A stretch of 64,000 nucleotides of DNA from an uncultured Chitinophaga sp. (GCA_964617955.1 CAZTXB010000015.1:290-64289); one strand, 5' to 3'; shown: positions 3,832 through 22,600, counted from the stretch's first letter. The notes: generated by a model not told the origin, from the sequence alone. Translations and numbers: made by a program.

Positions 3832-3832
3832 G

Positions 3833-4047: not shown

Positions 4048-4086
4048 TTTCTTAAAAAGAAAAATTAATAAATCCTTCTAAAATAC

Positions 4087-4161
4087 TGGTAGCCTCGGCG
4101 AGAATCGAACTCACATCAATTGTTTAGGAAACAACTATTCTATCCATTGAACTACGGGGCC
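4087..4161 (-). tRNA. tRNA-Arg(CCT), island-encoded, with encoded CCA
   Basis: GGCCCCGTAGTTCAATGGATAGAATAGTTGTTTCCTAAACAATTGATGTGAGTTCGATTCTCGCCGAGGCTACCA folds as a cloverleaf; anticodon CCT; one C-A mismatch in the acceptor stem. Confidence 0.92.
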
Positions 4162-4529: not shown

Positions 4530-4580
4530 TTCTTTTGTTGTTTGCTTTCAAAATTATCGCAAGTAATCCTTTTCCTAATA

Positions 4581-4622
4581 ACACCCCCCTGCCGTGAAAT
4601 AAAATCACGGCAGGACACCCCC
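4581..4622 (+). repeat. Palindromic site R1
   Basis: ACACCCCC-CTGCCGTGA(4589-4597)-AATAAAA-TCACGGCAG(4605-4613)-GACACCCCC. Confidence 0.9.
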
Positions 4623-4746
4623 GAATGGTATTATTGGAGTACACAGGTTTTACAGGGGTTTAGTTATCTCTCATTTTTTAAATTTATGGCAGGGGGGTGT
4701 GCGTTTATCTATTATTTGTAATTTGCACCCTATTCTTACCAAGGTT

Positions 4747-7158
4747 ATGCTGGATAAAAAAACCTTATCGGAACGAGATATTTGCACCAAATATATTACC
4801 CCGGCTATTCAATTGGCGGGGTGGGATATGCATACACAATTTTTGGAGGAAGTATCTTTTACGGATGGTAAAATATATGTTCGTGGCAGGCTGACATCCA
4901 GAGGTGAACGCAAGCGGGCTGATTACATTTTGTATTACAAACCCAACATTCCGATTGCCATTGTTGAAGCTAAGGATAATAATTATTCAGTAAGAGCTGG
5001 AATTCAACAAGCTTTGGATTATGCCAGGATTTTAGACATCCCTTGTGTTTTTAGCAGCAATGGGGATGGCTTTTTATTTCATGACAGAACAGCCACAGGT
5101 GAAAATATTGAAACTGAACTTGGAATTGATAAATTTCCAACACCGGAGCAGCTTTGGGAAAAGTATAAAAAGTATAAAGGTATCACTACACCTGAAGTTG
5201 AAAAAATAGCCGCACAGGATTATTATTTTGACGGCACAAGCCGCAAACCGAGATATTACCAGCAAATAGCGGTAAACCGGACAGTTGAAGCCATTGCCAA
5301 TGGCCAAAACAGGATTCTGTTAGTTATGGCAACAGGAACAGGAAAGACCTATACAGCTTTTCAAATAATTCACCGGCTATGGAAAAGTGGCGCAAAAAAA
5401 CGGATATTATTTTTAGCTGACCGAAACGCCTTGATTGACCAAACCCGGCGTAACGATTTTAAACATTTCAAGGATAAAATGACGGTTGTAAAAGACCGTC
5501 AGATTGATAAAAGCTATGAAATTTATTTGGCCTTGTATCAAGGTTTATCAGGCAATGACGAAGAGGCCAACGCTTACAAACAGTTTTCAAGAAACTTCTT
5601 TGATTTAATAGTAATTGATGAGTGCCATCGTGGAAGCGCAAAGGAAGATAGTAGTTGGCGGGAGATTTTAACTTATTTCCAAAATGCAACCCACATTTGT
5701 TTAACAGCCACGCCAAAAGAAACCGACACTGCCAGCAATACAGAATATTTTGGTGACCCTGTTTATACATATTCATTAAAGCAGGGAATTGATGATGGTT
5801 TCTTAGCTCCCTATCGTGTAGTAAGAATTGCCTTAAATATTGATGCCGAAGGCTGGCGACCGGAACAAGGCAAGACCGACAAAGATGGTAACGTAGTAGA
5901 AGACCGTATTTACAACCGTAAAGATTATGATAAAAGCCTTGTTATAGAGGAAAGAACCGATATTGTTGCCCAAAAACTGACCGAGTTTTTAAAAGGATAT
6001 GACCGATTTGCTAAAACCATTGTTTTTTGTGTTGACATTGACCACGCAGAAAGAATGAGAACCGCTTTAGCAAGGCACAATTCGGATTTAGTTGCCGGAA
6101 ATTATAAATACATCATGCAAATAACGGGGGATAATGATGAAGGAAAACGGGAGTTAGACAATTTTATAAACCCGGAAGAAAAATATCCGGTAATAGCAAC
6201 CACCTCCGAATTAATGACTACCGGAATTGACGCACAAACCTGCAAAGTAATTGTATTGGATGCCAATATCAATTCAATGACCAAGTTCAAACAAATTATA
6301 GGGCGTGGAACACGAATCAATGAAGAATACGACAAAATGTATTTTACAATTCTTGATTTCAGGAATGTAACGGATTTATTTGCCGATAAAGATTTTGATG
6401 GTGATCCAATTCGTGTAAAACCAATTTCGCAGGATGAAGATTTATCAATGCTTGTAATAGAAGAAGAAGAAAATACACTAACTGTTTTGGATGAAATAAG
6501 CGGTGAAGAAATTGTGTTTGAAAAAGCCAAAATTCGTTATCCGGATGGTTCGCAACCCTTTGGAAACTGGATTGCCAGAGAACCAAATAGTAACAGGGAA
6601 AAGGTAGTTGTAAATGGTGTAGATGTTTCTGTTTTGGTAAGCCGTGAATTGTATTTTGACCACCAGGGAAGACCCATCACGGTGAGTTTAAAAGACCATA
6701 CCAAAGAAATTATTACAGGCAAATATGCTTCTCTGGATGATTTTTTAACCCGGTGGAAAAATACGGAACGGAAAGAGGCCATCATCACGGAACTAATTGA
6801 ACAGGGTGTAATGGTGGAAGCCTTGTATGAAGCGGTGGACAAGCAGGTGGATTTATTCGACCTCATTTGTCATGTTGCTTATGACCAGCCACCTTTAACC
6901 CGAAAAGAAAGAGCCAACAATGTTAAGAAACGAAATTATTTTACAAAATATGGTGAAAAAGCCAAAAAGGTAATGGAAGCCTTGCTTGATAAATATGCGG
7001 ATGAAGGTATAACTAATATCGAAAACATTGAAGTATTGAGAGTAAACCCATTTGATGAGTTTGGTTCGCCAATAGAAATTATTAATGAGTTTGGTAGTAA
7101 AGAAAAATATTTGCAAGCGATCAAAGAATTAGAAACTGAGTTATATAAAACGGCATAA
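4747..7158 (+). CDS. hsdR: Type I restriction enzyme R subunit (EcoEI/EcoAI-like)
   Basis: SERDICTKYI N-terminus, AD...IVEAK nuclease motif, MATGTGKT, DECHRG and EcoEI-type C-terminus; ATG 4747 preferred over GTG 4699. Confidence 0.95.
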   Translation: MLDKKTLSERDICTKYITPAIQLAGWDMHTQFLEEVSFTDGKIYVRGRLTSRGERKRADYILYYKPNIPIAIVEAKDNNYSVRAGIQQALDYARILDIPCVFSSNGDGFLFHDRTATGENIETELGIDKFPTPEQLWEKYKKYKGITTPEVEKIAAQDYYFDGTSRKPRYYQQIAVNRTVEAIANGQNRILLVMATGTGKTYTAFQIIHRLWKSGAKKRILFLADRNALIDQTRRNDFKHFKDKMTVVKDRQIDKSYEIYLALYQGLSGNDEEANAYKQFSRNFFDLIVIDECHRGSAKEDSSWREILTYFQNATHICLTATPKETDTASNTEYFGDPVYTYSLKQGIDDGFLAPYRVVRIALNIDAEGWRPEQGKTDKDGNVVEDRIYNRKDYDKSLVIEERTDIVAQKLTEFLKGYDRFAKTIVFCVDIDHAERMRTALARHNSDLVAGNYKYIMQITGDNDEGKRELDNFINPEEKYPVIATTSELMTTGIDAQTCKVIVLDANINSMTKFKQIIGRGTRINEEYDKMYFTILDFRNVTDLFADKDFDGDPIRVKPISQDEDLSMLVIEEEENTLTVLDEISGEEIVFEKAKIRYPDGSQPFGNWIAREPNSNREKVVVNGVDVSVLVSRELYFDHQGRPITVSLKDHTKEIITGKYASLDDFLTRWKNTERKEAIITELIEQGVMVEALYEAVDKQVDLFDLICHVAYDQPPLTRKERANNVKKRNYFTKYGEKAKKVMEALLDKYADEGITNIENIEVLRVNPFDEFGSPIEIINEFGSKEKYLQAIKELETELYKTA

Positions 7159-7925
7159 TGGCTTTAATAGAAATTTCAGAAACACAACTTGCATTTGGCT
7201 ATTTACATTCCTACATCAATGTTTACAGACCAAGACGATTTATGCTTCCGTCCATTAGACAAGAAGGAGGAATGGTTCGTTTCCCTTACCCTGGGGCTGA
7301 CATAATTCTAAATTCCAACCATTTAATTCAATTTAAAAGACCATTCTATTTTACAACAAATGGAATTAAAGAGTTTTGGCATTTCTCAAAACCTACTGAC
7401 ATTGACCCACCATACTTTAGATTTTATATAAAAAACGATAATCCCACTAATCAACTTTCAAGTTTGGTTCGTGCAACTCAAAGCGGTTTATCTGCTGAAT
7501 ACATAAGTCCACTTTTTACAAACGAAACGGAATTTTTCAACTTAATGAGAAATGACCGAAGACATCTTGAAGCTTATGCTCATATTGACATTGCTCAATT
7601 TAGCGGAATGCTTAAAACAATCGGAAATAATAATGAACATACAATTATCTACAATCTACAATCAGTAGAAAACGATTTCTGTTACTGCTTTTCAGAACCA
7701 AAAAAAATAAAAGCGGAACAATATAAAGAGAATACAGTAATTAAATTTCAAGACCAAAATTTCAATGCTTCTGACATTGTAAAACTTATTCGTTCCATTT
7801 TCTTTCAGGAAGAAGATTTTTCATTTCAATCAGACAACACACTATATCAATGTCGTGTTTTACAGAACAGATTATTAGTTCAAAGAGACATTATTTGGCA
7901 TTTTAACTATATAATAAACAGATGA
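7158..7925 (+). CDS. Uncharacterised protein inserted between hsdR and hsdM; possible PD-(D/E)xK-like nuclease
   Basis: 255-aa ORF coupled by TAATG and ATGA overlaps; PSIRQEG..GADI...IQFKRP resembles an E..D..QxK nuclease core. Confidence 0.6.
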   Translation: MALIEISETQLAFGYLHSYINVYRPRRFMLPSIRQEGGMVRFPYPGADIILNSNHLIQFKRPFYFTTNGIKEFWHFSKPTDIDPPYFRFYIKNDNPTNQLSSLVRATQSGLSAEYISPLFTNETEFFNLMRNDRRHLEAYAHIDIAQFSGMLKTIGNNNEHTIIYNLQSVENDFCYCFSEPKKIKAEQYKENTVIKFQDQNFNASDIVKLIRSIFFQEEDFSFQSDNTLYQCRVLQNRLLVQRDIIWHFNYIINR

Positions 7926-9346
7926 GCAACTTATCAGGCATAATAAAATCTATCCGCAATGATATGCGTGAAGACCGTGGCGTAAGCGGTGACGGGCAAC
8001 GCATAGAGCAATTGGGCTGGATGCTATTCTTGAAAATATTTGACGACAAAGACAAGGAACTGGAATTGATGGACGAGAAATACAAATCGCCCATTCCCGA
8101 AAAATTTAAGTGGAGAAACTGGGCCGCCAACGATGAAGGCATGACAGGTGATGAACTTCTAACCTTTGTTGACCAGCAACTTTTCCCCACATTGAAAGAT
8201 CTTTCAGCCCTTGACCCACGGGCATACATGGTGCGTGAAGTGTTTGAAGGCAACAACAACTACATGAAAAGTGGCATCAACATTCGCAAGGTATTGAACA
8301 AGCTGAACGAAATTGATTTTAATAAAGCCAGCGAACGGCATTTGTTTGGGGAGATTTACGAAACCATTTTGCAGGAACTGCAAAGTGCGGGTGATTATGG
8401 TGAGTTTTACACACCACGAGCCGTTACACAATTTATTACCGACATCATCAATCCAAAATTAGATGAGAAAATTCTTGACCCGGCTTGCGGAACTGGCGGT
8501 TTCTTAACTTCTGCCATTGACCACTTAAAAAAGCAAACCAAGAACATTGACCAACGTAAAGCCATTCAAAAAAACATACAAGGTTGGGAATGGAAACCAT
8601 TGCCTTATGTATTGGCAACTACCAATTTGATTTTGCACGATATTGAATTACCTGACATTACTTATCGTGATGCTTTGGACAAACCTTTATCGGAATACAG
8701 AGAGAAAGACCGTGTCAATGTAATCATTGCCAATCCACCGTTTGGCGGCACGGTAGCCAACAACAACGAAAATAATTTTCCGCAAAACTATCGGGTAAAA
8801 GAAAGTGCCGACTTGTTTTTAATCTTGATGATACACTTGCTAAAGCAAGGAGGCAGAGCAGGAATTGTTTTGCCTGATGGAAGTTTGTCAGGTGATGGAG
8901 TTAAGCAACGTATTCGCCAAAAACTGTTGGAAGATTGCAACCTGCACACCATTATACGTTTGCCTAATTCTGTTTTCAAACCTTATGCAACCGTTGCAAC
9001 CAATCTTTTATTTTTTGACAAAGGGAAACCGACAAAAGACGTTTGGTATTATCAGCACAAATATCAGGAAGGGGTAAAATCCTATTCAAAAACCAATCCG
9101 CTTAAACTGGAAGAACTCGACCCAATTAAAACTTGGTGGAAGAAAAGAACTGAAAGCGAAGTGAGTTGGAAAGTTTCTATTGATACCATTATTGAACGGG
9201 GATATGACTTGGATATTAAAAATCCGAATGCTTTAGTAGAAGAAAGCGAGGAAACATCGAATGAAATACTTACAAGAATTGACACCGAGCAAAATAAAAT
9301 TCACGAAATAGTTGGCAAACTGAAAACACTTTTAGCAACTGAATGA
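7922..9346 (+). CDS. hsdM: Type I R-M methyltransferase
   Basis: GEFYTPR, motif I DPACGTGG, motif IV NPPF. Confidence 0.96.
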   Translation: MSNLSGIIKSIRNDMREDRGVSGDGQRIEQLGWMLFLKIFDDKDKELELMDEKYKSPIPEKFKWRNWAANDEGMTGDELLTFVDQQLFPTLKDLSALDPRAYMVREVFEGNNNYMKSGINIRKVLNKLNEIDFNKASERHLFGEIYETILQELQSAGDYGEFYTPRAVTQFITDIINPKLDEKILDPACGTGGFLTSAIDHLKKQTKNIDQRKAIQKNIQGWEWKPLPYVLATTNLILHDIELPDITYRDALDKPLSEYREKDRVNVIIANPPFGGTVANNNENNFPQNYRVKESADLFLILMIHLLKQGGRAGIVLPDGSLSGDGVKQRIRQKLLEDCNLHTIIRLPNSVFKPYATVATNLLFFDKGKPTKDVWYYQHKYQEGVKSYSKTNPLKLEELDPIKTWWKKRTESEVSWKVSIDTIIERGYDLDIKNPNALVEESEETSNEILTRIDTEQNKIHEIVGKLKTLLATE

Positions 9347-10635
9347 AATACCACCTGAAAAATATTTGCAGCATTACAAAAGGTGCTACGGGAATAATGA
9401 AAGCTGATGGGGGCAAATATCCTTTGGTGGCGCTGAGTGACGAACGTAGAAACCACAGCGAATATCAGTTTGACGTAAAGGCAGTGATTGTTCCGCTTAT
9501 CAGCAGCACAGGACACGGACATGCCAGTATGAAACGGGTTCATTATCAGGAAGGAAAATTTGCATTGGGGAATATTTTATGTGCTTTAATACCGAATGAT
9601 GAAACACAGCTGAATGCAAAATACCTGCACTTGTATTTGCAGCAATTTAAAGAAACTTTATTGGTGCCCTTGATGAAAGGCGCAGCCAATGTGAGTTTGC
9701 CAATGAACAAATTAGCTGAGGTAGAAATTGAAGTCCCAAGTTTAGAAAGACAGTTAGAAATAATTGAATTGGAAGAAGAAGCTGCCAAATACAAAAATGA
9801 ATTAGAAGAAAGATTGATTTTACAAGATGGTGACGTAGCAAAACTTCGTCAGGTATTGTTGAGAGAAGCCATGCAAGGCAAGTTGACAAAGCAAGATGCA
9901 AAAGATGAAAGTGCAAATGATTTGTTGGAGAACATAAGAGTTGAAAAGGATAAACTCATTGTAGCGAAAAAAATAAAACGAGAGAAAGAAATTGATGACA
10001 TTTCTGAGAGTGAAATTTCCTATTCAATCCCATCTAATTGGTGCTTGTGTCGTTTAGGTTCAATTGCTGAAACTGTAAATGATGGCGTTCACTATGCACC
10101 TAAATATTTGTCTTCGGGAATTCCTTCCTTATCTGCAAAGGATATTTTTAATAACAAAATAAATTTTGAAAAATGCAATTATGTAAGCATTGAAGAATAC
10201 AATTCTCAAAAAGAAAAATTCATGTTGAAAGTTGGAAGCGTTTTAGTGACGAAAAGTGGTAGCATTGGAAGAACCACAATTTATGATGGTTCAAGAGAAG
10301 TTTATTTAGTTGAGAGTGTTGGTGTAATAAATACAAATTCAAATTTCATAAATCCATCCTATGTTAAATATTTTATAGATAGCATTTTTGACAGCATCAC
10401 TTATGATGGCGAGCATGTTAAAGGAATGGGAGTAAAACATCTTACTTTGACACTAATAAAAAGAATGCAATTTCCACTTCCCCCATTTGCCGAGCAAAAC
10501 CGTATTGTAAAAAAGTTGGAGCAACTCATGCAACTCTGTAATGAATTGCAAAACAGCATACAGCAAAGCAAGATTGAAAATGAAAAATTATTGCTGGGGG
10601 CATTGAGGGACGCGTTGAAGAAAGAGGAAGTATAA
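9343..10635 (+). CDS. hsdS: Type I R-M specificity subunit
   Basis: Two TRDs with conserved P.LERQ / LPPFAEQNRIV spacers and LREAMQGKL..QD..DE region; coupled to hsdM. Confidence 0.93.
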   Translation: MKYHLKNICSITKGATGIMKADGGKYPLVALSDERRNHSEYQFDVKAVIVPLISSTGHGHASMKRVHYQEGKFALGNILCALIPNDETQLNAKYLHLYLQQFKETLLVPLMKGAANVSLPMNKLAEVEIEVPSLERQLEIIELEEEAAKYKNELEERLILQDGDVAKLRQVLLREAMQGKLTKQDAKDESANDLLENIRVEKDKLIVAKKIKREKEIDDISESEISYSIPSNWCLCRLGSIAETVNDGVHYAPKYLSSGIPSLSAKDIFNNKINFEKCNYVSIEEYNSQKEKFMLKVGSVLVTKSGSIGRTTIYDGSREVYLVESVGVINTNSNFINPSYVKYFIDSIFDSITYDGEHVKGMGVKHLTLTLIKRMQFPLPPFAEQNRIVKKLEQLMQLCNELQNSIQQSKIENEKLLLGALRDALKKEEV

Positions 10636-10644
10636 TTAAATATC

Positions 10645-12024
10645 ATGAGTATGACTATAGATACATCAAAAAACAATCTTTTCCTTGAAGGAGTTGATGA
10701 ATTAGCAAATTGGGAGATTGATAATAGGGGTATTCAGAAAATAAAAGTGCTTTTGAAAAGCTATCTGGAACTTGATAATGTGAGTTTTCTTTTCGGTGCA
10801 GGTTCTTCAATGAATATTGGTTCTGTTTCTATTGCAAATATTCCAACAAAAATTGAGGAGGCAATTAAAGCAACAAAAGTTGATATAGGTGGAAAACCAA
10901 CTCCTGGTTTATTATATGATGAATTTATTTCAATAATTAAAGATTTGCAATTAATAAAGGCTCCAGATATTGAAAAGAGAACTTCATCCAAAGAAATAGC
11001 ATACTCCCTCGAGAAATTATTGAACTATTTAGTTGCGCAAGAATATATACTTGACATTAATCCAAATGCGGCGCAGCATAAGCATCTTTTAGAGTTAGTA
11101 AGAATAATAAAACAAGGTCTATTTGAATTGTGTGATATTGAAAAATTGCCAAATGCAAGTTGGTTAGATGGTGATGAAAAAATAAATCTTGACAGAAATA
11201 AATCCTTCTACCACGAGAAGTTCACAAAGAAAATTTTGCAAAGACCTTTGAACTTGAAAAGAGCAAATGTCTTTACAACAAACTATGATTTATCATTTGA
11301 ATATGCTTTTGATAAGTTAGGAGTAAATTTTATTAGTGGCTTTTCAGGTTTTCAAAAAAGAACCTTTAAGCCCGAAGCATTTGAGTATGATTTATTTTTC
11401 CCAGGCTCAACAACACAAGGTAGAGTTCAAAGAATAGAGAAGGTTTTACGTTATTACAAAATTCACGGGTCGCTTACCTGGGTAAAAGAACAACCTTCTG
11501 AAAATAATGTTTATGGAATTTCAGAAGTACCAATAGAAATTGTCCGTGAGAAGAAAGATTATGAGAACATCATGATTTATCCAACCACTGCAAAAAAATC
11601 ATTCACTTTAGATTTTCCATATTCTGAATTATTCCGCCAATTTGCAGCCACAATTTCCCAACCTCAATCAGTTTTAATTACATTTGGTTACTCATTCAGC
11701 GATGAACACATAAATGATATTATTTATCAGGCGCTAACAATTCCTTCTTTTACATTAATTATAATTGACTTTAACGGGACAAATGAGAAAGACCCTTCCA
11801 ACATCAATAAGGAAATTAAGAAGCTGAAAGATTTGAAGGACCCACGGGTTGCAATTTTGCAGGGAGAACAACTTGGTAGTTTTTCATTTTTTGTCGAACA
11901 ACTTTTACCGGACCTGATTGAAGTAAATACTTATGAAAGAATTGCTGAAACATTGAAAAAGCTTTTCGGGAAAGATGATACTCCCCCGGCAACTATAAAA
12001 ACCACCTCCGCACCGGCACCATGA
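10645..12024 (+). CDS. SIR2-like (SIR2_2) NADase, Sir2-HerA antiphage effector
   Basis: FLFGAGSS, FTTNYD, YKIHGS, GYSFSDEHIN motifs; overlaps the HerA gene. Confidence 0.88.
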   Translation: MSMTIDTSKNNLFLEGVDELANWEIDNRGIQKIKVLLKSYLELDNVSFLFGAGSSMNIGSVSIANIPTKIEEAIKATKVDIGGKPTPGLLYDEFISIIKDLQLIKAPDIEKRTSSKEIAYSLEKLLNYLVAQEYILDINPNAAQHKHLLELVRIIKQGLFELCDIEKLPNASWLDGDEKINLDRNKSFYHEKFTKKILQRPLNLKRANVFTTNYDLSFEYAFDKLGVNFISGFSGFQKRTFKPEAFEYDLFFPGSTTQGRVQRIEKVLRYYKIHGSLTWVKEQPSENNVYGISEVPIEIVREKKDYENIMIYPTTAKKSFTLDFPYSELFRQFAATISQPQSVLITFGYSFSDEHINDIIYQALTIPSFTLIIIDFNGTNEKDPSNINKEIKKLKDLKDPRVAILQGEQLGSFSFFVEQLLPDLIEVNTYERIAETLKKLFGKDDTPPATIKTTSAPAP

Positions 12025-14153: not shown

Positions 14154-14199
14154 GTTGATTAGTAACGGCTAATATTAAATTGAGAAATAGACAAATCAA

Positions 14200-14913
14200 A
14201 TGAATGATAAGTTAGATATAAAAATTATAGAAAAATATCTTTCTGGAATTACATCCGATGACTTCCACCGATATAAATCCTGGGATAATTGTCATCAAGC
14301 ATTTTCTGTTAGTCAAATAACCGAAAACCATGCTTTACAATTGGCTTTTTATCTTGCAAGTTGGGGTATGTATAGAGGTTCAAGCGGCCTACTCCAAAAG
14401 AATCATTTAATACATAAAGACGCAGTTGGCATTTTGTTTTCTAAAGAAAATCAACAATTAAAATGCAACCAAATTAATGAGGTAAGCAAAGCCAATATTA
14501 GTGCAATACTGGATTTAAAAAGTGAATTAACGAAGCATTATACAAACCATAAATTTAAAAGAGGAAATGAGAATGAAAAGCCGATTTCATCAACTGACAC
14601 GCTATTGAGTAAGATTATGCTCGGCACTTTTGGATGCGTTCCGGCCTACGACAGGTATTTTATTGTTGGTTTGAAAGAAATGAAAATGCGGTATCAAGGT
14701 TTCAACGAAGCTTCATTAAACGAATTGTTTAATTTCATTGATAACAACCGAAAAGAAATTGAAAATGCACAAAATCTTATAAAATCAAAAACTCAAAACC
14801 ATTATCCTGTAATGAAAATATTGGATATGTATTTTTGGCAAATTGGTTATGACAAAGAAATTAGAAGCAAAACCGAAATTATTGCTAAAATTAAGAAGGT
14901 TAAAAATTATTAA
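14200..14913 (+). CDS. Conserved hypothetical protein (LAFYLASWGMYRGSS motif)
   Basis: 237-aa ORF with SWDNC, LASWGMYRGS, GCVPAYDRYF and LDMYFWQIG motifs; function not assignable. Confidence 0.75.
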   Translation: MNDKLDIKIIEKYLSGITSDDFHRYKSWDNCHQAFSVSQITENHALQLAFYLASWGMYRGSSGLLQKNHLIHKDAVGILFSKENQQLKCNQINEVSKANISAILDLKSELTKHYTNHKFKRGNENEKPISSTDTLLSKIMLGTFGCVPAYDRYFIVGLKEMKMRYQGFNEASLNELFNFIDNNRKEIENAQNLIKSKTQNHYPVMKILDMYFWQIGYDKEIRSKTEIIAKIKKVKNY

Positions 14914-14937
14914 AAAGAAAGAAGATAAAACACTGAA

Positions 14938-15025
14938 GGGGGGTGTCCTGCCGTGAAATAAAATCACGGCAGGACACCCCCCTCTAATATGCCAAAAACA
15001 CCGGGGAATATGGCATTTTAACCTT
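14938..15025 (+). repeat. Palindromic site R2 plus tail
   Basis: Perfect 19-bp arms GGGGGGTGTCCTGCCGTGA / TCACGGCAGGACACCCCCC around AATAAAA (14957-14963); tail CCAAAAACACCGGGGAATATGGCATTTTAAC. Confidence 0.9.
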
Positions 15026-15134
15026 TTATATGGCAAAATTGTATTGAATTGTATTTGTATAATTTTATTTACATGCATTTATTAATGTTAAGATAAATCT
15101 ACGTTGCTTTTTTTTAAACATATATATTTGGACT

Positions 15135-15425
15135 TTGAATAAAACCAAAAATTATGCTTTGATACTTGCAAGTGGAGGAATAGATTCTACGGCTTGTATT
15201 AATTTCTTTAAAAAATTAAAGTTTGATGTTGAAGCTATTTTTGTAGACTATGGTCAATCGGCTGCTAAATATGAATATAAATCTATTGTAGCTATTACTA
15301 AATTTTATAAGATTGAATTAAGAAGAATAGTCGTTAAAAATAACAATAAATTTAAAGAAGGTTTTGTGCCGGGCAGAAATGCTTTTTTATATTTTATGGC
15401 TTTGATGAATTTTAATAAACCAAGC
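15135..15425 (+). pseudogene. 5' fragment of a QueC-like (7-cyano-7-deazaguanine synthase family) gene
   Basis: LILASGGIDST PP-loop, FVDYGQ and VPGRNA motifs; recognisable homology stops near 15425 and the remaining frame runs into the AbiE promoter; C-terminal motifs absent. Confidence 0.75.
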
Positions 15426-15484
15426 GGTCGTTTTTGGTGTTTTTACGGAATGATTGCATTGTATATTGTGGTCAAAACCAATTT

Positions 15485-15538
15485 CTATATTACGGCAGCA
15501 TTTTTTATTTGCTGCCGTAATATAGTTTATTATATTTG
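15485..15538 (+). promoter_or_regulatory. Operator palindrome overlapping a Bacteroidota sigma70-type promoter of the AbiE operon
   Basis: 16-bp inverted repeat CTATATTACGGCAGCA (15485-15500) / TGCTGCCGTAATATAG (15510-15525); TTTG at 15508-15511, 19 nt before TATATTTG (TAnnTTTG) at 15531-15538. Confidence 0.7.
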
Positions 15539-15553
15539 CCGATAAGCTTATAG

Positions 15554-16306
15554 ACAATCGCAACAGAAAAATTAAATATAGCCAAACTTCAAAAGCACTT
15601 CAAAGGCAAAAGCACTTTTGCTAATCGTGACATTGTTAATTTTTATCAGGAATTTGAACCATCCTTAAAAATTAGCACCGTCAATTGGAGAGTTTATGCA
15701 TTAATAAAATTAGGTATCCTTTCACGAATAGGCAGAGGAAAATTTACTTTGGGAAAAGAAAAAAACTTTGTTCCACAGGTTGAAGCAAAAATAAAAACCC
15801 TCTATAAAAAACTAAATAAACATTTTCCATATCTTCAAATCTGTATTTGGCATACTTCAATTCTTAATGAATTTATGCTTCATCAACCAGGTAGATTTTA
15901 TATCCTTGTTGAAGCAGAAAAGGATGCAATGGAAAATATTTTTTATTTTCTCAAGGAAAATAAAACCAATGTCTTTATTGACCCTACTTTTGGTATCCTT
16001 AGCCGCTATTCTTCAGATGAGAAAGAAACAATCATTGTAAAACCTTTGGTATCAGAAGCACCTATTCAGCGTTTGGAAGGAGTATGGACTATCACTATTG
16101 AAAAAATGCTGGTAGACATTTTTTCTGATGAAATAATTTTCGCAGCTCAACAAGGGGGAGAATTGCAACACATTTTTAATGAAGCTTTCATAAGATACAC
16201 TATAAACGAAAGCAGAATGCTTCGCTATGCAAACAGGAAAAGAAAAAAAGAAAGTTTTAATAATTATTTAAATAAAGTTTCAATATTTCGGCAGCAAACT
16301 AAATAA
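15554..16306 (+). CDS. AbiEi-like antitoxin / wHTH regulator (DUF6577-like)
   Basis: Frame is open from 15554 and includes TVNWRVYALIKLGILSRIGRGKF upstream of the tracked TTG at 15749; IEKMLVDIF motif; no in-frame ATG at the 5' end. Confidence 0.7.
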   Translation, partial: TIATEKLNIAKLQKHFKGKSTFANRDIVNFYQEFEPSLKISTVNWRVYALIKLGILSRIGRGKFTLGKEKNFVPQVEAKIKTLYKKLNKHFPYLQICIWHTSILNEFMLHQPGRFYILVEAEKDAMENIFYFLKENKTNVFIDPTFGILSRYSSDEKETIIVKPLVSEAPIQRLEGVWTITIEKMLVDIFSDEIIFAAQQGGELQHIFNEAFIRYTINESRMLRYANRKRKKESFNNYLNKVSIFRQQTK

Positions 16307-16327
16307 AATGCCGTTTTATAGTGCACT

Positions 16328-17389
16328 ATGATAGACAAAAATACACTCACGCATCAATGGATTGATAACGTTTCCAAAACAAACCGCAATGCTGATAAAA
16401 TTCTTGTAGAGAAAGTTATCCGAGCCTTATTGTTATTGGAAGGCTTAAGCAATATAGGTTTGTCATTTGTTTTTAAAGGTGGCACCGCATTAATGCTGCT
16501 AATGGATTCAGCAAAACGTTTGTCTATTGACATTGATATTATTATTTCTAAAACACCTGAAAATTTAGAAGAGATGATGCAGGAAGTTGGCAAAAATCAA
16601 GGTTTCAACAAAGTGGAACTACAACATCGCCATACTGCCTCTGAAATTGAAAAAGCACACTACAAATTTTTCTATACTCCAGTTCACCAAACTCACACAG
16701 GTGATGATTATGTCTTGCTTGACATTCTTTTTGAGGCAAATAATTATAGCAATGTTTCTTTGCATCCTCTCAAATCAATATTCGTCAGCAACACGGGTAC
16801 TCTGGCTCAAATACAAATGCCATCATTAGAAGATTTATTAGGCGATAAACTCACAGCCTTTGCCCCATACACCACCGGTATTCCTTATTTGCGAAATGAA
16901 AACAGCATGAGTATGGAAATCATCAAACAACTTTATGATATCGGAAACCTTTTTGATGCCGTAAATGATTTAAGTCTAATAAAAGAAACATACCATAAAA
17001 TTGTAAACGTAGAAATTAAATATCGCAAGCTTGCAGGAGTTTTGCCCTCCCAGGTTTTAGAAGATACTTACCAGACAGCCCTGTGCATTTCGCTTCGTGG
17101 CAGTGATGGTGTAGGAGATTTTAATGAATTACAAAAAGGCATACAGCGCATCAGAGGTTTTATATTTTCAGAAACTTATCATTTAGAAAAAGCGATTACT
17201 CACGCTGCTAAAGCAGCTTATCTGTCAAGGCTTATTTCAAGGGATCAAACCACATTTGAAAAATATGTTGACCCAAAACAAGTTGCTGATGCTACCATTT
17301 TAGCTCCTCATAATACCAGGCTACAAAGATTTAAAAGAACAAACACCGAAGCGTTTTTCTATTGGTGGAAAGCATCTCAACTATTTTAA
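16328..17389 (+). CDS. abiEii: AbiEii-family nucleotidyltransferase toxin (type IV TA)
   Basis: FKGGTALML..RLSIDIDI, DKLTAF and KQLYD motifs. Confidence 0.88.
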   Translation: MIDKNTLTHQWIDNVSKTNRNADKILVEKVIRALLLLEGLSNIGLSFVFKGGTALMLLMDSAKRLSIDIDIIISKTPENLEEMMQEVGKNQGFNKVELQHRHTASEIEKAHYKFFYTPVHQTHTGDDYVLLDILFEANNYSNVSLHPLKSIFVSNTGTLAQIQMPSLEDLLGDKLTAFAPYTTGIPYLRNENSMSMEIIKQLYDIGNLFDAVNDLSLIKETYHKIVNVEIKYRKLAGVLPSQVLEDTYQTALCISLRGSDGVGDFNELQKGIQRIRGFIFSETYHLEKAITHAAKAAYLSRLISRDQTTFEKYVDPKQVADATILAPHNTRLQRFKRTNTEAFFYWWKASQLF

Positions 17390-17467
17390 TTAACAGAACA
17401 ATTTGTAAATAAACTTCACGAATAGCGGATCGTGAATTGAAAATCCAATTGGTACTTATTTTAAAAA

Positions 17468-17575
17468 ACCACCCCGCTGCCGTATAATAAAATCACGGCA
17501 GGACACCCCCCTCCAAAACGCTGAAAACACTGGTGAATATGGCTTTATGACGATTTATGACACTAAAAATGTGAA
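17468..17575 (+). repeat. Palindromic site R3 plus tail
   Basis: ACCACCCCG-CTGCCGTAT-AATAAAA-TCACGGCAG-GACACCCCCC, then CCAAAACGCTGAAAACACTGGTGAATATGGCTTTATGACGATTTATGAC. Confidence 0.88.
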
Positions 17576-17761
17576 ATTTTATTGATTTTTAAGAAATATA
17601 AGCCTTACCTAAAACAAAGAAGTATTGCTTTAATGAAATCCGAAAACAAAAGCTTACTTACGCAGAAGAAGATTTTTTTGATTAAATCTTACAACTTTTT
17701 TTTATTGTAATTCTTTATGTGGTAAACAATTTGACGGAATAACAAGTTCGCATAATAATTA

Positions 17762-17867
17762 GGTGGTTCAATCGGTGGTTTAATAGGTGGTCTAATCGGT
17801 GCTAATCTGTGGTTCAATGGGTGGTTCAATGGTTGATGCAATAGGTGGTGCAATAGGTGGTGCAATG
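17762..17867 (+). repeat. Degenerate 12-bp tandem repeat (GGTGGTDYAATN; GGSI/GGAI peptide)
   Basis: About nine units such as GGTGGTTCAATC and GGTGGTGCAATA. Confidence 0.8.
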
Positions 17868-18048
17868 TCTCGTCCTAAGCAATTGTTTAATAATTGTGCA
17901 AGTGGTGCTTGCGCAATTACATTTTATTCTGAATTTTCTATTTCACCCTTGCTAAACGTATTCTTTAATTGGTCGAAAACTGCGGGGAATATTGGCGTTT
18001 TAACGTTTCATGACGTAAAAAATGTTAAATTTTAGTAATGAATTTGAA

Positions 18049-18119
18049 GGTGGTTCAATGGGTGGTCAAGTGGTGGTCAAGTAGGTGGTCAAGTAGGTGG
18101 TCAAGTAGGTGGTGTAATG
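18049..18119 (+). repeat. 12-bp tandem repeat GGTGGTCAAGTA (GGQV peptide), one unit 1 nt short
   Basis: Six units; the second unit is 11 bp and shifts the frame. Confidence 0.8.
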
Positions 18120-18182
18120 AAGTGCAATGGGTATTCAGGGCAAGACAGGATTCGTTAATTTTCAAAATCAATTAGTACTTAA

Positions 18183-18290
18183 ACCACTCCCCTGCCGTGA
18201 AATAAAATCACCGGCAGGACACCCCCCTGCAAAACGCCAAAAATACCGGTGAATATGGCTTTTTAAAGATTTATGACGTTAAAAATTAGA
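18183..18290 (+). repeat. Palindromic site R4 plus tail
   Basis: ACCACTCCC-CTGCCGTGA-AATAAAA-TCACCGGCAG (1-nt insertion)-GACACCCCCC, then the conserved tail. Confidence 0.88.
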
Positions 18291-18376
18291 AAAATTATGA
18301 GTTTTTACTACGTGATATAAAATTTAACCCTTAATTTGAAGGAGATATCTAATCCACGATAAAGGAGTATCTACAA

Positions 18377-19210
18377 ATGCTAAACGCCACTCCAACCTAC
18401 ATAAAACAGTTACTAATATTTTTCGGACTTGCATACATTATTTCCTGGATAATTTGGTTGCCATTATATGGACATATTTTCGGACTGACCAATTTGCCAG
18501 TAATACCTTTCAATCATGCCATTGGTGGGTTGGGGCCTTTAATCGCGTCCTTTTTAGCTACCTGGATTTTACTTAAAAAAGATGGAGTCAAAAAACTCTT
18601 AGTAAAGTGTTTTCAAATTAAACCGATTACATATTTAGCAATTGCATTGTTCAGTCCTTTTATTCTTGCTTTCATTGCATCTGTGATTAGTTATTTCATC
18701 AACAAGACTTCAATCAACATTTTGGGACTTCTTACAACAAAAGAATTTCCGCAATGGAACTTACTCACTTTTTTCTTTTACAATCTCATATTTTTTGGAT
18801 TTGGTGAAGAAGTTGGTTGGCGTGGGTTTGCATTACCACGACTGCTAAACAAATCAAACGCATTGATCGCAAGTATTCTGCTGACATTGTTTTGGGCTTT
18901 GTGGCATGTGCCGTTATTTTTTTACAGACCAAGTTACACGACAATGGACTGGATGGGTATTTTGGGTTGGGTTTTTAGTTTGCTGACAGGAAGTATTTTG
19001 TTGACATGGTTATATAACTCAGCGAAAGCAAGCATTTTAATTTGCGCTGTTTTCCATTCTACCATCGACATTGCATTTACTGCTGACATTGCCGACAAAA
19101 ATATTATGAACTACATGGGATTTTTAATAACCGTTTGGGGAATCTTGATAATAATTATTTTTAAACCAAAGTATTTATCACGGCAACAATCAACGACATT
19201 GATAAACTAA
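18377..19210 (+). CDS. CPBP (CAAX protease/Abi domain) intramembrane metalloprotease
   Basis: Multiple transmembrane segments; EEVGWRG, WALWH and FH motifs. Confidence 0.88.
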   Translation: MLNATPTYIKQLLIFFGLAYIISWIIWLPLYGHIFGLTNLPVIPFNHAIGGLGPLIASFLATWILLKKDGVKKLLVKCFQIKPITYLAIALFSPFILAFIASVISYFINKTSINILGLLTTKEFPQWNLLTFFFYNLIFFGFGEEVGWRGFALPRLLNKSNALIASILLTLFWALWHVPLFFYRPSYTTMDWMGILGWVFSLLTGSILLTWLYNSAKASILICAVFHSTIDIAFTADIADKNIMNYMGFLITVWGILIIIIFKPKYLSRQQSTTLIN

Positions 19211-19311
19211 TTATGAATAATCACTTCTAAAAACAATTTGTTTGGACTGATTAACTGCACATAACACACAGATTAAAAGAAATCTTTTTAAAAAGGGTTT
19301 TTGTTTGATTA

Positions 19312-19415
19312 ACCACTCCCCTGCCGTGAAATAAAAATCACGGCAGGACACCCTCCTGCAAAACTCTGAAAACACCGGGGAATATGGCTTTTTAACGATT
19401 TATGACTTTAAAAGT
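19312..19415 (+). repeat. Palindromic site R5 plus tail
   Basis: ACCACTCCC-CTGCCGTGA-AATAAAAA (8 nt)-TCACGGCAG-GACACCC, then CTGCAAAACTCTGAAAACACCGGGGAATATGGCTTTTTAACGATTTATGAC. Confidence 0.88.
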
Positions 19416-19479
19416 GATAATTTTTAGTCCCTAATGGAGAGGGAAGTTAAAAAAGTGTGATTACTCCTTTTAAAATAAT

Positions 19480-19824
19480 TTATTTTTTAAGTTCATACGC
19501 TTCTCTGAGCCAGGTGAGAAGTTCTTTATCAATATCTTTTTCACCTACAAGCTTAATGGTATGATGAAAGCGGTTTGCTGATGCTTGCTCCACTTTGCTA
19601 ACCCTTTCGCTTGTGAGCTTGTAGTTTAAATGTACTTCTAAGTTGATGTAGTCTTTGCGTGTATAAACTCCAGCGAAACCAAACCGATTACCTAAATGAA
19701 TGCTTGTCTTGTTCGGTTCGATTTTTAGTTGTCCCAACTTTTGCAATTCGGCGACGAGCTTTTCGTAAATATTTGTAACAACTTTTTCTTTTCCAGTTAG
19801 ATGGTCATGTTCTGTATAGTTCAT
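19480..19824 (-). CDS. DUF5655-like small protein
   Basis: 114 aa; KTSIHL...FAGV...N.FHH.I.L..EKDID.ELL.WL.EAY pattern. Confidence 0.7.
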   Translation of the reverse strand: MNYTEHDHLTGKEKVVTNIYEKLVAELQKLGQLKIEPNKTSIHLGNRFGFAGVYTRKDYINLEVHLNYKLTSERVSKVEQASANRFHHTIKLVGEKDIDKELLTWLREAYELKK

Positions 19825-19830
19825 TTTTCT

Positions 19831-20358
19831 TTATTTAGAGTTAGGTAGTAATTTTTTTAATGCTGCCTGATAAATCTTTTTGATTGCGTTGTCAGGGTCG
19901 CCCTTAATAATTGCTTCGATTGCCGGAACTAAATCTTTGTTGTGTTTGGTTTTTAGCTTTACAATTTCTCCTAATGCAAATGCGGCACTCCATCTTACCA
20001 CCGTGCCCGAATATTCTGTATTCGTTAAAAGGTTGCTTATTGCCTTGTCCAACTTGTTAGGATAAAGATGTGCAATGTTACCAATAACTTTTGCTGATTC
20101 CCATTTTACTCTTGGTGCTTCGTGAGTCAAAGTTTCTGTAACAAAGTCAAGACAAGCTGAAGATGCAATGTCGGGTTGGTTTCTTGTTGCAAATTCAAGG
20201 GCTTCAATGCAGGTTCCTTTCTCTTTGTCTTTGGAAACCTTGGCAACTTTCAGCAGCTCATCAATGCTGACTTTTTTGTCGAGCAACATTTTGCTGATTG
20301 CTTCAACTTTAGGTTTTGCTTTAAGCTGCTTGTCAGTAATAATTGTTTGTATGTCCAT
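19831..20358 (-). CDS. HEAT-repeat protein
   Basis: Helical repeats VKWESAKVIGNIA and VRWSAAFALGEI. Confidence 0.7.
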   Translation of the reverse strand: MDIQTIITDKQLKAKPKVEAISKMLLDKKVSIDELLKVAKVSKDKEKGTCIEALEFATRNQPDIASSACLDFVTETLTHEAPRVKWESAKVIGNIAHLYPNKLDKAISNLLTNTEYSGTVVRWSAAFALGEIVKLKTKHNKDLVPAIEAIIKGDPDNAIKKIYQAALKKLLPNSK

Positions 20359-20402
20359 GTCGCTGCGGGAATCTTAATTGCTTTTTTCGAGATGAATAAA
20401 TT

Positions 20403-21023
20403 TCAATTTTTTAATTCATTTCGTTTGAAGGAGCAAAATAAAAAATTCTGTGTTGTGTTGAACGGCGTTATATGATCTTCCGTTATACACTTTATTTTTT
20501 GAAAACCATTTTGCAACTGTTGTTGCAATTCCTCTTCGGTGTATTGATGAACATCAAGCATACTGCATTTCTTTGGCCCTTTGTCGGAGAAGGTTCCTAT
20601 TACCATAAAACCTTTTACCGCTTTTCTTGCAGTTGTTATATAACTATTCATATCACTTGAACCAGTGAGAAAATGAAAAGTAGCCCTATCGTGCCAACAG
20701 TCATAAGTTGAAGCAGGATTAAATTCCGTTACATCGCTTACAATCCAATTTACGTTTTTAGCCTTGTCGCCAAGTCTATACTTAGCTCTTTCAATTGCTT
20801 TCTCTGAAATATCAAGCACAGAAATATTTTCAAAACCCTCATCAAGTAAATAATCAACTAATTTGCTGTCGCCACCTCCAATATCAATAATACTTGCTGA
20901 TTTTGGAAGATTAAAACTATGTACAAAGTCCAAAGATGTTTTAGGTAGTTCTTGTGTCCAGCTTACTTTGTGGGGCAGTTTATTTTCATAAACTCTTTCC
21001 CAATGTTCTTTTCTTGTTTCCAT
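20403..21023 (-). CDS. Class I SAM-dependent methyltransferase
   Basis: IIDIGGGDS motif I, VLDIS, WHDRATFHF. Confidence 0.88.
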   Translation of the reverse strand: METRKEHWERVYENKLPHKVSWTQELPKTSLDFVHSFNLPKSASIIDIGGGDSKLVDYLLDEGFENISVLDISEKAIERAKYRLGDKAKNVNWIVSDVTEFNPASTYDCWHDRATFHFLTGSSDMNSYITTARKAVKGFMVIGTFSDKGPKKCSMLDVHQYTEEELQQQLQNGFQKIKCITEDHITPFNTTQNFLFCSFKRNELKN

Positions 21024-21026
21024 TAT

Positions 21027-22436
21027 TTATTGTGTTGGTAATTTATAATCAATACCGAAATATTTGGCATAGTCCTCAATAGGTTGGAGCCCTACTTTTT
21101 TTCGCCGGATGTTTACATTTTTTTCATCTTCTATTGGATAAAACTCCTGCCCTCCGGTTTTATTAAATACAACCTGCGAACCATAAATTTGTTTTTTTCC
21201 TTCTCGCATTAAAATTCGGTCTTGCATCATTGCCATATCGCTGGCTTTTGATTCACCTTCCTCAACTGATTGTTGAAACAAAGGAAAATATTTTTTCTGA
21301 GTAGCCAAGTCTGCATGTTGAATCACAAGAAAAAATGCCTGATTATATCCTTCTCCAACCAAACTTTTCCCCATCCAACCGTATTTTTCAATAAGGGTTG
21401 TTATCTGCACCTGGTTACAACTGTCGATGTAATGCATAAACTTAGCCGAATCGCCATGTGCCCTTGTTTTTTGGTCTCTTTCGTAAATTGCTTTTAATTC
21501 CTTTTTTATTGCCTTCAAATCAAAATTGTCTTTAACCATTTCAGAGGCAGTAACAGTTTTGGTATAATACATTGCTTTGTAAGGATATGTTGTTTTAGCA
21601 GACATAAGCATCACATATTTATCAAAATTTAAAGTAGTATCAAAATCATTAATCGGCCTGTCCAGTTTTCTTTCTTCAAGTCCATGTCCAAAATCCGCGC
21701 GGCAAGTACCTTTTAAATAGTAATTACCAATGGTGCAGATTTTAGCAGATAGATTTAATTCCTGATCCTTTTTTAGATATGATGCCATTTTCTTTTCAAA
21801 AGGAGAAATCAATGCATGAGCATTACCACTAAGCGTTACCTTTTTCCATTTCGGATGCAACTGAATTTGATTTTTTATTTTCAAATACATAATGCTATCT
21901 CTTTCATATATTTTCCCATCACCTTCATTCCTGTCAAAGAAAAAAAGTTGAACCTTCGGGTTGTTTTTCAAATGCGAAATAATACTTGCCCATGCAAAGG
22001 ATTGCCGTCCATCAAGAATTGGAAGATCATAAAAAAAATGACTTTGATAAATGCTGCTATCAGTATGTGATGAAATATAATTTGTCGTTTTCTCTGATGG
22101 TATTTCCAAACCAACAGAAACGCTGTCGCCTTTGCCGGTCAGAAGATTTGTTAAACCTATTACAAACTGTGCAGATTCATTTGTGCCATGCATTTCTCCT
22201 ATCATTAGGATTTGAAAAGGGGAAAGAAGATTATAAACTGAATCACTTAGCAAGTATGGGTTCTCAACTTTTACGGCATTTGCTTTAAGATATGCTGTAT
22301 TATTTTGTCCTCTCGTATTTATGAAAGTAAGTGATAAGAAAAACAGGGGTAAATATTTTTTGACAACAAATGAAGTTCGCCATTTGTCAAAAAGATTTAT
22401 AGATGTGAATGAGCTGTTTAAAGTTTGAATAACCAT
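21027..22436 (-). CDS. Secreted two-domain protein (N-terminal esterase/ChaN-like, C-terminal DUF6624-like)
   Basis: Signal-like segment; IGEMHGT motif; C-terminal FLVIQHAD, MMQDR...QIYGSQ and P.EDE.NVN.RR..VGL motifs. Confidence 0.6.
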   Translation of the reverse strand: MVIQTLNSSFTSINLFDKWRTSFVVKKYLPLFFLSLTFINTRGQNNTAYLKANAVKVENPYLLSDSVYNLLSPFQILMIGEMHGTNESAQFVIGLTNLLTGKGDSVSVGLEIPSEKTTNYISSHTDSSIYQSHFFYDLPILDGRQSFAWASIISHLKNNPKVQLFFFDRNEGDGKIYERDSIMYLKIKNQIQLHPKWKKVTLSGNAHALISPFEKKMASYLKKDQELNLSAKICTIGNYYLKGTCRADFGHGLEERKLDRPINDFDTTLNFDKYVMLMSAKTTYPYKAMYYTKTVTASEMVKDNFDLKAIKKELKAIYERDQKTRAHGDSAKFMHYIDSCNQVQITTLIEKYGWMGKSLVGEGYNQAFFLVIQHADLATQKKYFPLFQQSVEEGESKASDMAMMQDRILMREGKKQIYGSQVVFNKTGGQEFYPIEDEKNVNIRRKKVGLQPIEDYAKYFGIDYKLPTQ

Positions 22437-22511
22437 AATATCTATTTCACAAATCTATATTTTTTTTGAAAGTACTAAAGCAAGTTGCCTTTTCATCAAA
22501 TGATTAGAGAT

Positions 22512-22560
22512 ACCACCCCCCTGCCGTGCAATAAAATCACGGCAGGGCACCCCTCTGCCG
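22512..22560 (+). repeat. Palindromic site R6 (no tail), just downstream of the integrase stop codon
   Basis: ACCACCCCC-CTGCCGTGC-AATAAAA-TCACGGCAG-GGCACCCCTCTGCCG. Confidence 0.88.
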
Positions 22561-22600
22561 CAAAGTGACTCGTTCTGAAATACCTATCACAAATCAATAT

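Follow-up and report, generated by a model that had tools for sequence, protein, structure and literature searches.

A co-oriented hairpin repeat at the cargo junctions of a tRNA-Arg island in an uncultured Chitinophaga sp.

Organization of the island and its cargo

The 64,000-nt stretch of DNA from an uncultured Chitinophaga sp. that was analysed in this work (GCA_964617955.1, CAZTXB010000015.1:290-64289; hereafter the window) carries a low-GC island between positions 3832 and 24193, in which the cargo genes are separated by co-oriented copies of a short hairpin repeat, here called R. On the sequences compared, it is established that R marks the points at which cargo differs among near-identical island backbones, and that at least one toxin-antitoxin module was exchanged at R. 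Modular shuffling punctuated by repeats is known as such; the present case is a variant of it from uncultured Bacteroidota, in a minimal defence island that integrates at a tRNA gene.

The GC content is 0.31-0.39 at 4-24 kb compared with 0.37-0.44 (mostly ~0.40-0.44) in the flanks, and the limits of the island were set by homology with relatives. At the left end lies a tRNA 3' fragment, the att remnant (3832..3888, - strand), which is a weak tRNA match and shares 75% similarity with the tRNA-Arg 3' part; homology with four related contigs (L014-L017) stops at 3826-3832. The left copy of the direct arm-type repeats TTGTGAGA (3951..4049) is kept in the same four contigs and has a twin at 24013-24041, and these repeats presumably serve as integrase arm sites. 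They are followed by a complete tRNA-Arg(CCT) gene at the xis end of the island (4087..4161, - strand; found by ARAGORN and with 60 bits by Rfam) and by a xis-like gene encoding a small helix-turn-helix (HTH) protein of 91 amino acids (4254..4529, - strand), for which a promoter motif scan identified a Bacteroidetes -7 box, TAATTTTG, at 4549-4556. The arrangement of xis and tRNA-Arg is the same in L014-L017. The xis-like protein had no Pfam match, and its remoter homologues are found in integrative elements, adjoining primase genes. At the other end, the tyrosine integrase gene (22601..23983, - strand) encodes Arm-DNA-bind_5, SAM_5 and catalytic domains and a C-terminal CxxC...CxxC tail, and is followed by the arm-type repeats at 24013-24041 and by a displaced tRNA 5' half (24149-24192), which together form the right end of the island (24013..24193); homology with contig L026 (CANJTE010000002.1) stops at 24193. 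The integrase tail (22601-22740) resembles a zinc ribbon and extends ~40 amino acids past the catalytic domain, and one database relative is labelled 'XerD/phage Mu Com'. The interrupted host tRNA gene persists as the 3' fragment and the 5' half, and the resident tRNA-Arg(CCT) apparently has one acceptor-stem mismatch.

Contigs L014-L017 share ~96% identity with the window from R1, the first copy of R, to 3826-3832, a region that includes xis, tRNA-Arg(CCT), the TTGTGAGA repeats and the tRNA 3' fragment, and L026 shares 92.5% identity from 24193 to 22512, which includes the tRNA 5' half, the arm repeats, int, and the last copy of R with its tail. The host DNA past these limits is unlike among the window, L014 and L026, and therefore the element moves. 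By homology with the relatives, the backbone, with its own complete tRNA-Arg, totals ~2.4 kb, somewhat more than the ~2 kb estimated in an earlier reading that was made from the sequence alone (the sequence-only reading), and the cargo extends from ~4590 to ~22510. No recombinase besides Int was found in the island or in the rest of the window, which is ordinary chromosome, nor was a xer gene found in the window. The GC skew suggests that the whole window belongs to a single replichore arm. A stretch of 206 nt immediately beyond the island's left end is bracketed by a perfect inverted repeat of 18 bp, ATAGGGCCTGCTGAAAAA, at 3546-3563 and 3770-3787, and could be a miniature inverted-repeat transposable element (MITE) or an invertible segment.

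R has the form CTGCCGT-N9-11-ACGGCAG and occurs in six co-oriented copies on the + strand, at 4589, 14948, 17477, 18192, 19321 and 22521 (R1 to R6). The pattern CTGCCGTGA-N7-TCACGGCAG, with up to 3 mismatches allowed, matched the copies at 4589, 14948, 17477 and 22521, all on the + strand, and had zero matches in 100 dinucleotide-preserving shuffles; a repeat finder and an indel-tolerant scan added the copies at 18192, with an extra C in the right arm, and at 19321, with an extra A in the loop. Together, these scans bear out the six palindromes that the sequence-only reading had described. Its statement that all copies are intergenic and confined to the island also held, as gene calls placed all six in non-coding DNA, which accounts for only 13.5% of the island, and neither the pattern scan nor the indel-tolerant scan of the window found a copy or half-copy beyond 4.5-22.6 kb, i.e., in the other ~44 kb. 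The outermost copies adjoin the backbone genes at the distances noted earlier, ~49-60 bp from R1 to xis and ~40-55 bp from R6 to the integrase stop.

Pfam and NCBIfam matches likewise bear out the gene content previously described for the five intervals between R copies. The modules hold 1-8 genes, lie on both strands and have internal promoter motifs. The first module (4749..14913, + strand) comprises a type I restriction-modification (R-M) system (hsdR, orf255, hsdM and hsdS), SIR2-HerA and orf237, where the hsdR start at 4749 was inferred from the N-terminal sequence; the R1-R2 interval thus contains two defence systems without an R between them. Orf255 (7158-7925, in the gap between hsdR and hsdM) and orf237 (14200-14913, after HerA) have no family match and lie inside the defence operons, and they are candidate accessory defence components. 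The second interval begins with a truncated QueC-like gene fragment (15135..15545, + strand), which matches only positions 2-64 of 210 of the Pfam QueC model and extends into an R-related hairpin, R*. This fragment is probably what is left of a 7-deazaguanine- or Qat-type defence module that was deleted. It is followed by an AbiE-type toxin-antitoxin pair, DUF6577 and AbiEii (15749..17389, + strand), flanked by R* and R3.

The third interval holds debris (17763..18120, + strand), consisting of 12-nt GGTGGTTCAATG tandem repeats and a copy of tail A alone, one of the sequences that follow R (~17971-18035). The GGTGGTTCAATG repeats at 17763-17869 and 18050-18120 encode Gly-rich peptide fragments, one of which, with an MLNFSNEFEGG-like leader, closely precedes the gene for a CPBP/CAAX intramembrane protease, and these fragments may represent decayed bacteriocin-like peptide genes with an immunity protease. 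The protease gene (18377..19210, + strand) is the sole gene between R4 and R5. Homologues of the protease with 71-86% amino acid identity were found in Saprospiraceae, Chitinophagaceae, Ferruginibacter and a flavobacterium, which is unusually conserved for cargo, and no R accompanies the 86%-identical homologue at its location. The fifth module (19480..22436, - strand) encodes DUF5655, a HEAT-repeat protein, a methyltransferase and DUF6624.

Anatomy of R

An alignment of 13 copies from 7 loci gave the consensus (A)ACCACCCCCC, CTGCCGT-nn, an A-rich loop, TCACGGCAG, and GACACCCCCC-TGC... for R. The hairpin consists of CCTGCCGT, the A-rich loop of 7-11 nt and ACGGCAGG, and is set between two direct copies of CACCCCCC. 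Furthermore, CACCCCCCTGCCG, which covers the left flank and runs into the left arm, is repeated directly right after the right arm, so that the right arm can pair with either neighbour; this second copy is whole in R6 (22548-22561) and in L018 and is shortened to CACCCCCCTGC elsewhere. The right arm and the following AAATC are nearly invariant, the loop and two inner bases of the left arm are variable, and the spacers differ among R1-R6 within the island. The six outer pairs of the stem are constant and the inner pairs break without compensation, and therefore R is conserved at the sequence level. R3 and R6 have arm mismatches. The 13-copy alignment contained no covariation supporting an RNA stem, and no Rfam family was matched by R at gathering or E-value thresholds, under which only tRNA was detected.

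The repeated unit is 44 nt in all six copies and reaches ~110-135 nt in R2-R5, with a core of ~45-68 nt that has direct C-rich flanks. The ~45-bp core of the sequence-only reading therefore stands as the part common to all copies, to which the longer unit, the tails, the half-sites and R* have to be added. After the core come ~15 nt shared by the copies, CCCCCCTnCAAAAnnCTGA, and then one of three tails: tail A, ~80-100 nt, follows R2-R5, L008, L009 and the second copy in L006 (L006b), tail B follows R6, the first copy in L006 (L006a) and L026, and tail C follows R1, L016 and L019. The R1 core (left half U, loop, right half V; 4578..4621) is thus followed by tail C (4622..4699), which ends in an inverted half-site, GGCAGGGGGGTGT (4686-4699, 90 nt downstream of R1). 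R2 with its tail A spans 14937..15060, with the palindrome at 14937-14983; R3 spans 17466..17601 and is 85% identical to L008 over 136 nt; R4 and R5 span 18181..18305 and 19310..19426, respectively; and R6, with its second half-site in direct orientation and tail B, spans 22510..22600 and is kept beside the integrase stop in L001, L026 and L027. All of these lie on the + strand. In R2, the left flank has become exactly complementary to the right one, so that the palindrome is perfect and its arms measure 20 bp (-32.6 kcal/mol, z = -7.4).

R* (15485..15525, + strand) has a 16-bp stem with the same CGGCAG/CTGCCG duplex as R and its loop at the opposite end, and is followed by a T-rich run and by -33/-7 promoter motifs. 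L008 has R* as well, with one change that is compensatory and one that gives a wobble pair. Apart from R1, R2, R5, R6 and R*, the 64 kb contains no perfect GC-rich hairpin of at least 8 bp.

By our count, ~8 of 12 R contexts follow closely on a gene or operon 3' end. No U-tract was found after R on the + strand, and on the - strand there is a weak alternative hairpin of 5-7 bp before a T-rich loop. By motif, tail A does not look like a Bacteroidetes or sigma-70 promoter, since no -33/-7 motif is conserved in it and the sigma-70 scan was at background. R with its tail was rejected as a long imperfect palindrome like attC or the Vibrio cholerae repeats (VCR), as only the core hairpin folds stably. 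Local alignment of R1-R6 with the att/tRNA core scored no better than shuffled sequences, and the possibility that R, or the repeats of the related island L021 described below, are decayed att scars of tandem integration was rejected on the same grounds.

Cargo junctions in related islands

The relatives available for comparison are a handful of short metagenomic contigs. A 96%-identical xis lies beside tRNA-Arg on seven contigs, and all of them keep the stretch from xis to the end of CACACCCCCCTGCCG(T/G), which takes in the left arm of R1. Six related loci share this xis/tRNA-Arg backbone, of which four read past R1 into three different continuations (L016 and L019 being the same), none matching the cargo of the window. 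In the window, the left arm of R1 is followed by the loop GAAATAAAA, V, tail C, the half-site and hsdR. In L016/L019, it is followed by the loop GGGGAAAAAGT, V, tail C (~85%), the half-site and then an unrelated gene for a secreted protein, and the homology to the window stops after the inverted half-site. In L018, the loop GGAAAAAAAGT and V are followed by a second half-site, a tail-A piece and unrelated DNA, and in L017 only 10 nt separate the left arm of R1 from a second complete R. The remaining two loci, the k141 contigs L014 (k141_1654729) and L015, stop inside R1. Independent assemblies also break inside R elsewhere, as the Logan contigs L010 and L011 start at 14952, within R2. The Logan breaks can be attributed to R1 and R2 being identical over 34 nt, and the k141 breaks at R1 may reflect strain-level heterogeneity of the cargo within the sample.

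At the integrase end, three loci with a 93%-identical integrase (L001, L026 and L027) keep R beside the stop codon, and their similarity to the window extends to the outer edge of R, where unrelated cargo begins. This cargo holds a two-component system and large unknown proteins, and no further R was found in its first 10 kb. R is kept at both ends of the backbone in all relatives examined. The sequence-only reading had raised the question of whether related backbones carry different modules, with breakpoints in the 7-nt spacer; the first part is borne out at the xis and int ends, and most breaks in homology coincide with the outer edge of R or of its tail and are not demonstrably in the spacer. 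L026 also contains a gene for a Y1 (IS200/RAYT-like) transposase at 6403-6949, where RAYT stands for REP-associated tyrosine transposase and REP for repetitive extragenic palindrome, with two CCCCGAAGGGG hairpins just past one end. In addition, a 60-nt repeat with the palindrome ATAGTAGTTTACTACTAT lies upstream of two of its cargo operons (11673-14340), near the LuxR-type two-component system, and is likely an operator.

A module swap was seen inside the cargo. The window has R*, DUF6577/AbiEii and R3 with tail A, and L008 has R*, HigB/HigA and R with tail A; the two flanks are 89% and 85% identical, and the enclosed genes are unrelated. In L006, a gene for a type IX secretion system (T9SS) beta-propeller protein is alone between two direct copies of R. 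The homology of L006, L008 and L009 to the window is limited to R with its tail, and the DNA on both sides is different.

More distant relatives lack R. It was not found in integrase relatives of 68-72% identity (L002, L003, L020 and L021), and L002, L003 and L020 (integrase 69-72%), as well as L023-L025 (xis 56-70%), are ordinary integrative elements. Contig L021 is a tRNA-Arg island with a 68%-identical integrase, an ApaLI R-M system and DarTG, and has its own unrelated repeat, 105-150 nt long, which is found three times in the same orientation between cargo genes (12921-13025, 16156-16260 and 17055-17159), and each copy ends just before the start of a cargo gene. These copies contain small UUCG-type hairpins and have no Rfam match. 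Therefore, repeat-punctuated cargo recurs with different repeats.

Distribution of R

The strict R pattern had 0 matches in 185,579 species-representative genomes and in IMG/VR. A relaxed pattern had three matches in the genomes, of which one was real (L006, CAMDGU010000005.1, from a metagenome-assembled genome labelled Chitinophaga) and two were chance matches in high-GC actinobacteria, and three in 241 million metagenome records, of which two were real (L008 and L009, from one JGI metagenome) and one was by chance. Neither R nor R with its tail was found in plasmids, phages or IMG/VR, and the tail-A motif had a single chance match in IMG/VR, inside a coding region. Contigs L010-L012 and L027 belong to the genome of the window or to the island of L026 and add no new variants. 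R is therefore very rare and is not a genome-wide REP, and the main scenario under which the sequence-only reading would have failed is thereby removed.

Discussion

How the cargo came to be exchanged at R can be explained in several ways, and the one that we favour, with a probability of about 0.45, is module shuffling anchored in the repeats, by homologous recombination or template switching, with R acting as a portable junction repeat. According to this explanation, R would delimit cargo modules in minimal int/xis/tRNA-Arg(CCT) islands of uncultured Bacteroidota, and the modules would be gained, lost and swapped via recombination between copies of R and R*. No dedicated recombinase would be needed, as the short repeats could act as portable homology of 45-170 nt, with breakage or template switching promoted by the hairpin, and a documented precedent is the gene shuffling by promoter early stem-loops (PeSLs) in T4-like phages. 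The repeats, of 45-170 nt and 80-95% identity, are long enough to anchor recombination. The replacement of AbiE by HigBA took place between two different repeats, R* and R, which fits an exchange through flanking homology better than the action of a recombinase on a single site. The different cargo joined to R at the xis and int ends, the breaks in homology at the repeat edges, the single genes between R copies in the window and in L006, and the use of another repeat in the same way by L021 also speak for this explanation. The perfect palindrome of R2 reads as a footprint of hairpin-templated strand switching, and if this signature is taken at face value, the hairpin forms in vivo. In addition, the hairpin probably acts as a terminator-like transcriptional boundary at operon ends; a primary role of this kind is suggested because most copies of R lie past operon 3' ends and because R* has the features of a terminator plus a promoter.

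Several observations weigh against this explanation. Copies of R are identical over short stretches only, ~15-20 nt to either side of the loop, a borderline length for RecA-dependent recombination. No recombination product between copies of R was observed in the sequence data used here. Because of the missing U-tract on the + strand, the analogy with PeSLs and the role as a terminator are incomplete, the Bacteroidetes promoter motif is not conserved in tail A, and the genes around R1, L006a and L009 are divergent and need no terminator between them. Others of these observations are at the same time what would be expected if R were the core site of a site-specific recombination system, in which Int/Xis, a host Xer-type enzyme or some hairpin-recognising enzyme would move circular modules in and out of an integron-like array. 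The strict orientation of all six copies in the window and both copies in L006, the regular architecture, in which inverted arms of 8-10 bp enclose an asymmetric spacer (A-rich, 7-11 nt) and the right arm is constant while the inner part of the left arm varies, and the nested junction of L017 are all more easily understood in this way. So is the finding that the three continuations in the relatives and the window all diverge just after CCTGCCG(T). The loop is also far more variable than the adjacent non-coding DNA, and the short length of the identical stretches beside it would be in keeping with a crossover site. With R present on both sides of the int-att-xis backbone, recombination between R1 and R6 would free the whole cargo.

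Site-specific recombination is nevertheless the less likely reading to us, a serious but minority one. The island and the window contain no recombinase except Int, R is unlike the att/tRNA core that Int uses, and since integrases of 68-72% identity occur without R, R is not coupled to the Int family. Conventional tyrosine recombinases would poorly tolerate spacers that vary from R1 to R6 and the indels in R4 and R5. Furthermore, one flank of the AbiE/HigBA swap is R* and not R, 10 kb of the L026 cargo has no internal R, and the R1-R2 interval holds its two defence systems with no R between. What stands of the integron-like capture site that the sequence-only reading had proposed is therefore the presence of R at both junctions of backbone and cargo and the existence of R-flanked units, and what is not supported is the link to a recombinase and to the att core; the integron-analogous, site-specific platform is to be taken as a hypothesis. 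A related and rather unlikely variant is that R is the crossover site of a dedicated system, possibly one recognising hairpins or single-stranded DNA, which would bring R-bearing modules into the minimal int-xis-tRNA backbone and take them out again, and would have arisen independently of integrons and of Xer/pdif.

It is also conceivable, but improbable, that R and its tail are a small non-autonomous element similar to MITEs or REPs, which inserts by itself into the AT-rich intergenic DNA of mobile islands and whose position at borders is a by-product of survival, as only insertions between genes would persist. This would account for the R-tail unit being all that L006, L008 and L009 share with the window, for the 9-nt direct repeats that flank the hairpin and resemble a target duplication, and for L017, where one R unit seems to sit within the loop of another. 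An orientation bias relative to replication is established for IS200/IS605 and REP/RAYT elements, and the hairpin-dependent single-strand transposition of such elements could explain co-oriented copies in a window that probably represents one replichore arm by its GC skew. However, the 'duplication' does not vary in sequence from copy to copy and hence belongs to the element, terminal inverted repeats are missing, and no pair of filled and empty sites was found among the few comparable loci. The copy number is very low for an element of this kind, with 0 copies in the 44 kb of flanking chromosome and one other genome out of 185,579, and the only Y1 transposase seen, that of L026, is flanked by the different hairpin CCCCGAAGGGG. 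A by-product of survival would also not be expected to be kept at both backbone ends in every relative. Finally, it is very improbable that R is an operator through which an island regulator such as the xis-like HTH protein coordinates or silences xis and cargo: the position of R1 ~25-70 nt upstream of the predicted xis -7 box, a stem conserved as sequence with no compensatory changes, as for a protein-binding site, and half-sites in direct, inverted and everted arrangements would suit such a role, but most copies are at gene 3' ends or between convergent genes (R5) and not at promoters, their distance to downstream starts is not fixed, no xis-like gene was seen in the 8 kb of L006, which has R, and the replacement of cargo at R would be left unexplained.

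How whole systems are exchanged so rapidly in satellite hotspots and defence islands is recognised as a question in need of an answer. Here, the cargo of near-identical backbones differs at a specific non-coding repeat of 45-170 nt, and the question becomes testable, as a choice between an anchor for recombination and a true site. If R is an anchor for homology, as we favour, the principle of the PeSLs would be extended from phages to bacterial integrative islands, and if it is a site for specific recombination, it would represent a third, independent gene-capture platform, in Bacteroidota. R is also a practical marker that delimits modules, with orf255, orf237 and DUF6624 as candidate defence genes.

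Comparison with known systems

Like the REP and bacterial interspersed mosaic element (BIME)-RAYT systems and hairpin MITEs, R is a GC-rich extragenic palindrome with a fixed orientation and nested copies. REPs are present in tens to hundreds of copies per chromosome, whereas R is missing from the flanking 44 kb and from nearly all genomes searched. No cognate Y1 (RAYT) transposase accompanies the R hairpins in the window, and that of L026 has CCCCGAAGGGG instead.

Among integrons, sedentary chromosomal arrays have homogeneous attC sites (PMC8876359, PMC9024848). R resembles these in that co-oriented, highly similar hairpin repeats lie between cargo units and adjoin a tyrosine recombinase gene. 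However, the integrase of the island is of the phage/conjugative transposon (CTn) type with Arm-DNA-bind_5 and SAM_5 domains and a tRNA-Arg att site, and is not IntI, and R has neither RYYYAAC/GTTRRRY boxes in the 13-copy alignment nor a long imperfect stem with extrahelical bases, its stem measuring 8-10 bp and an extended palindrome folding only in R2. The modules between copies of R are often multi-gene, with their own promoters and on both strands, in contrast to the mostly promoterless single-gene cassettes of integrons.

The island also shares a compact integrase backbone, a defined slot and rapidly swapped defence systems with the P2/P4 hotspots, in which the slot is bounded by conserved core genes; in a 2026 study, the mechanism of the swaps was stated to be unresolved, and they were not attributable to transposons or ordinary homologous recombination (PMC13586616). 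The difference is that both the slot and its sub-slots are bounded here by a specific non-coding hairpin repeat.

The pdif sites are 28-bp sites composed of a XerC half, 6 bp and a XerD half, which have alternating orientation and resemble chromosomal dif. The copies of R are all direct, with identical arms of 8-10 bp, a loop of 7-11 nt and long conserved flanks, and no link between R and Xer is known. In Acinetobacter plasmids, the short palindromic spacer sites of the pdif (XerC/D) modules split accessory genes, including toxin-antitoxin pairs (PMC6449649, PMC13141974, PMC9947245), and R is similar to these in that, outside integrons, discrete modules are found in varied combinations on related backbones.

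The PeSLs of T4-like phages are composite intergenic stem-loop motifs in one orientation, located in a hyperplastic region at the borders of indels and replacements, and recombination between copies shuffles modules and yields mini-circles (PMC2839356, PMC4122927). R is likewise a stem-loop at gene ends that is found at the borders of indels and replacements between relatives, and R* is arranged in the same way, with promoter motifs after a terminator-like hairpin. R differs in being located in a bacterial integrative island and not in a phage, in having neither a recognisable promoter nor a + strand U-tract, and in its direct C-rich flanks and asymmetric, variable loop. By analogy, R appears to work most like the PeSLs, and in its outcome it resembles the pdif modules.

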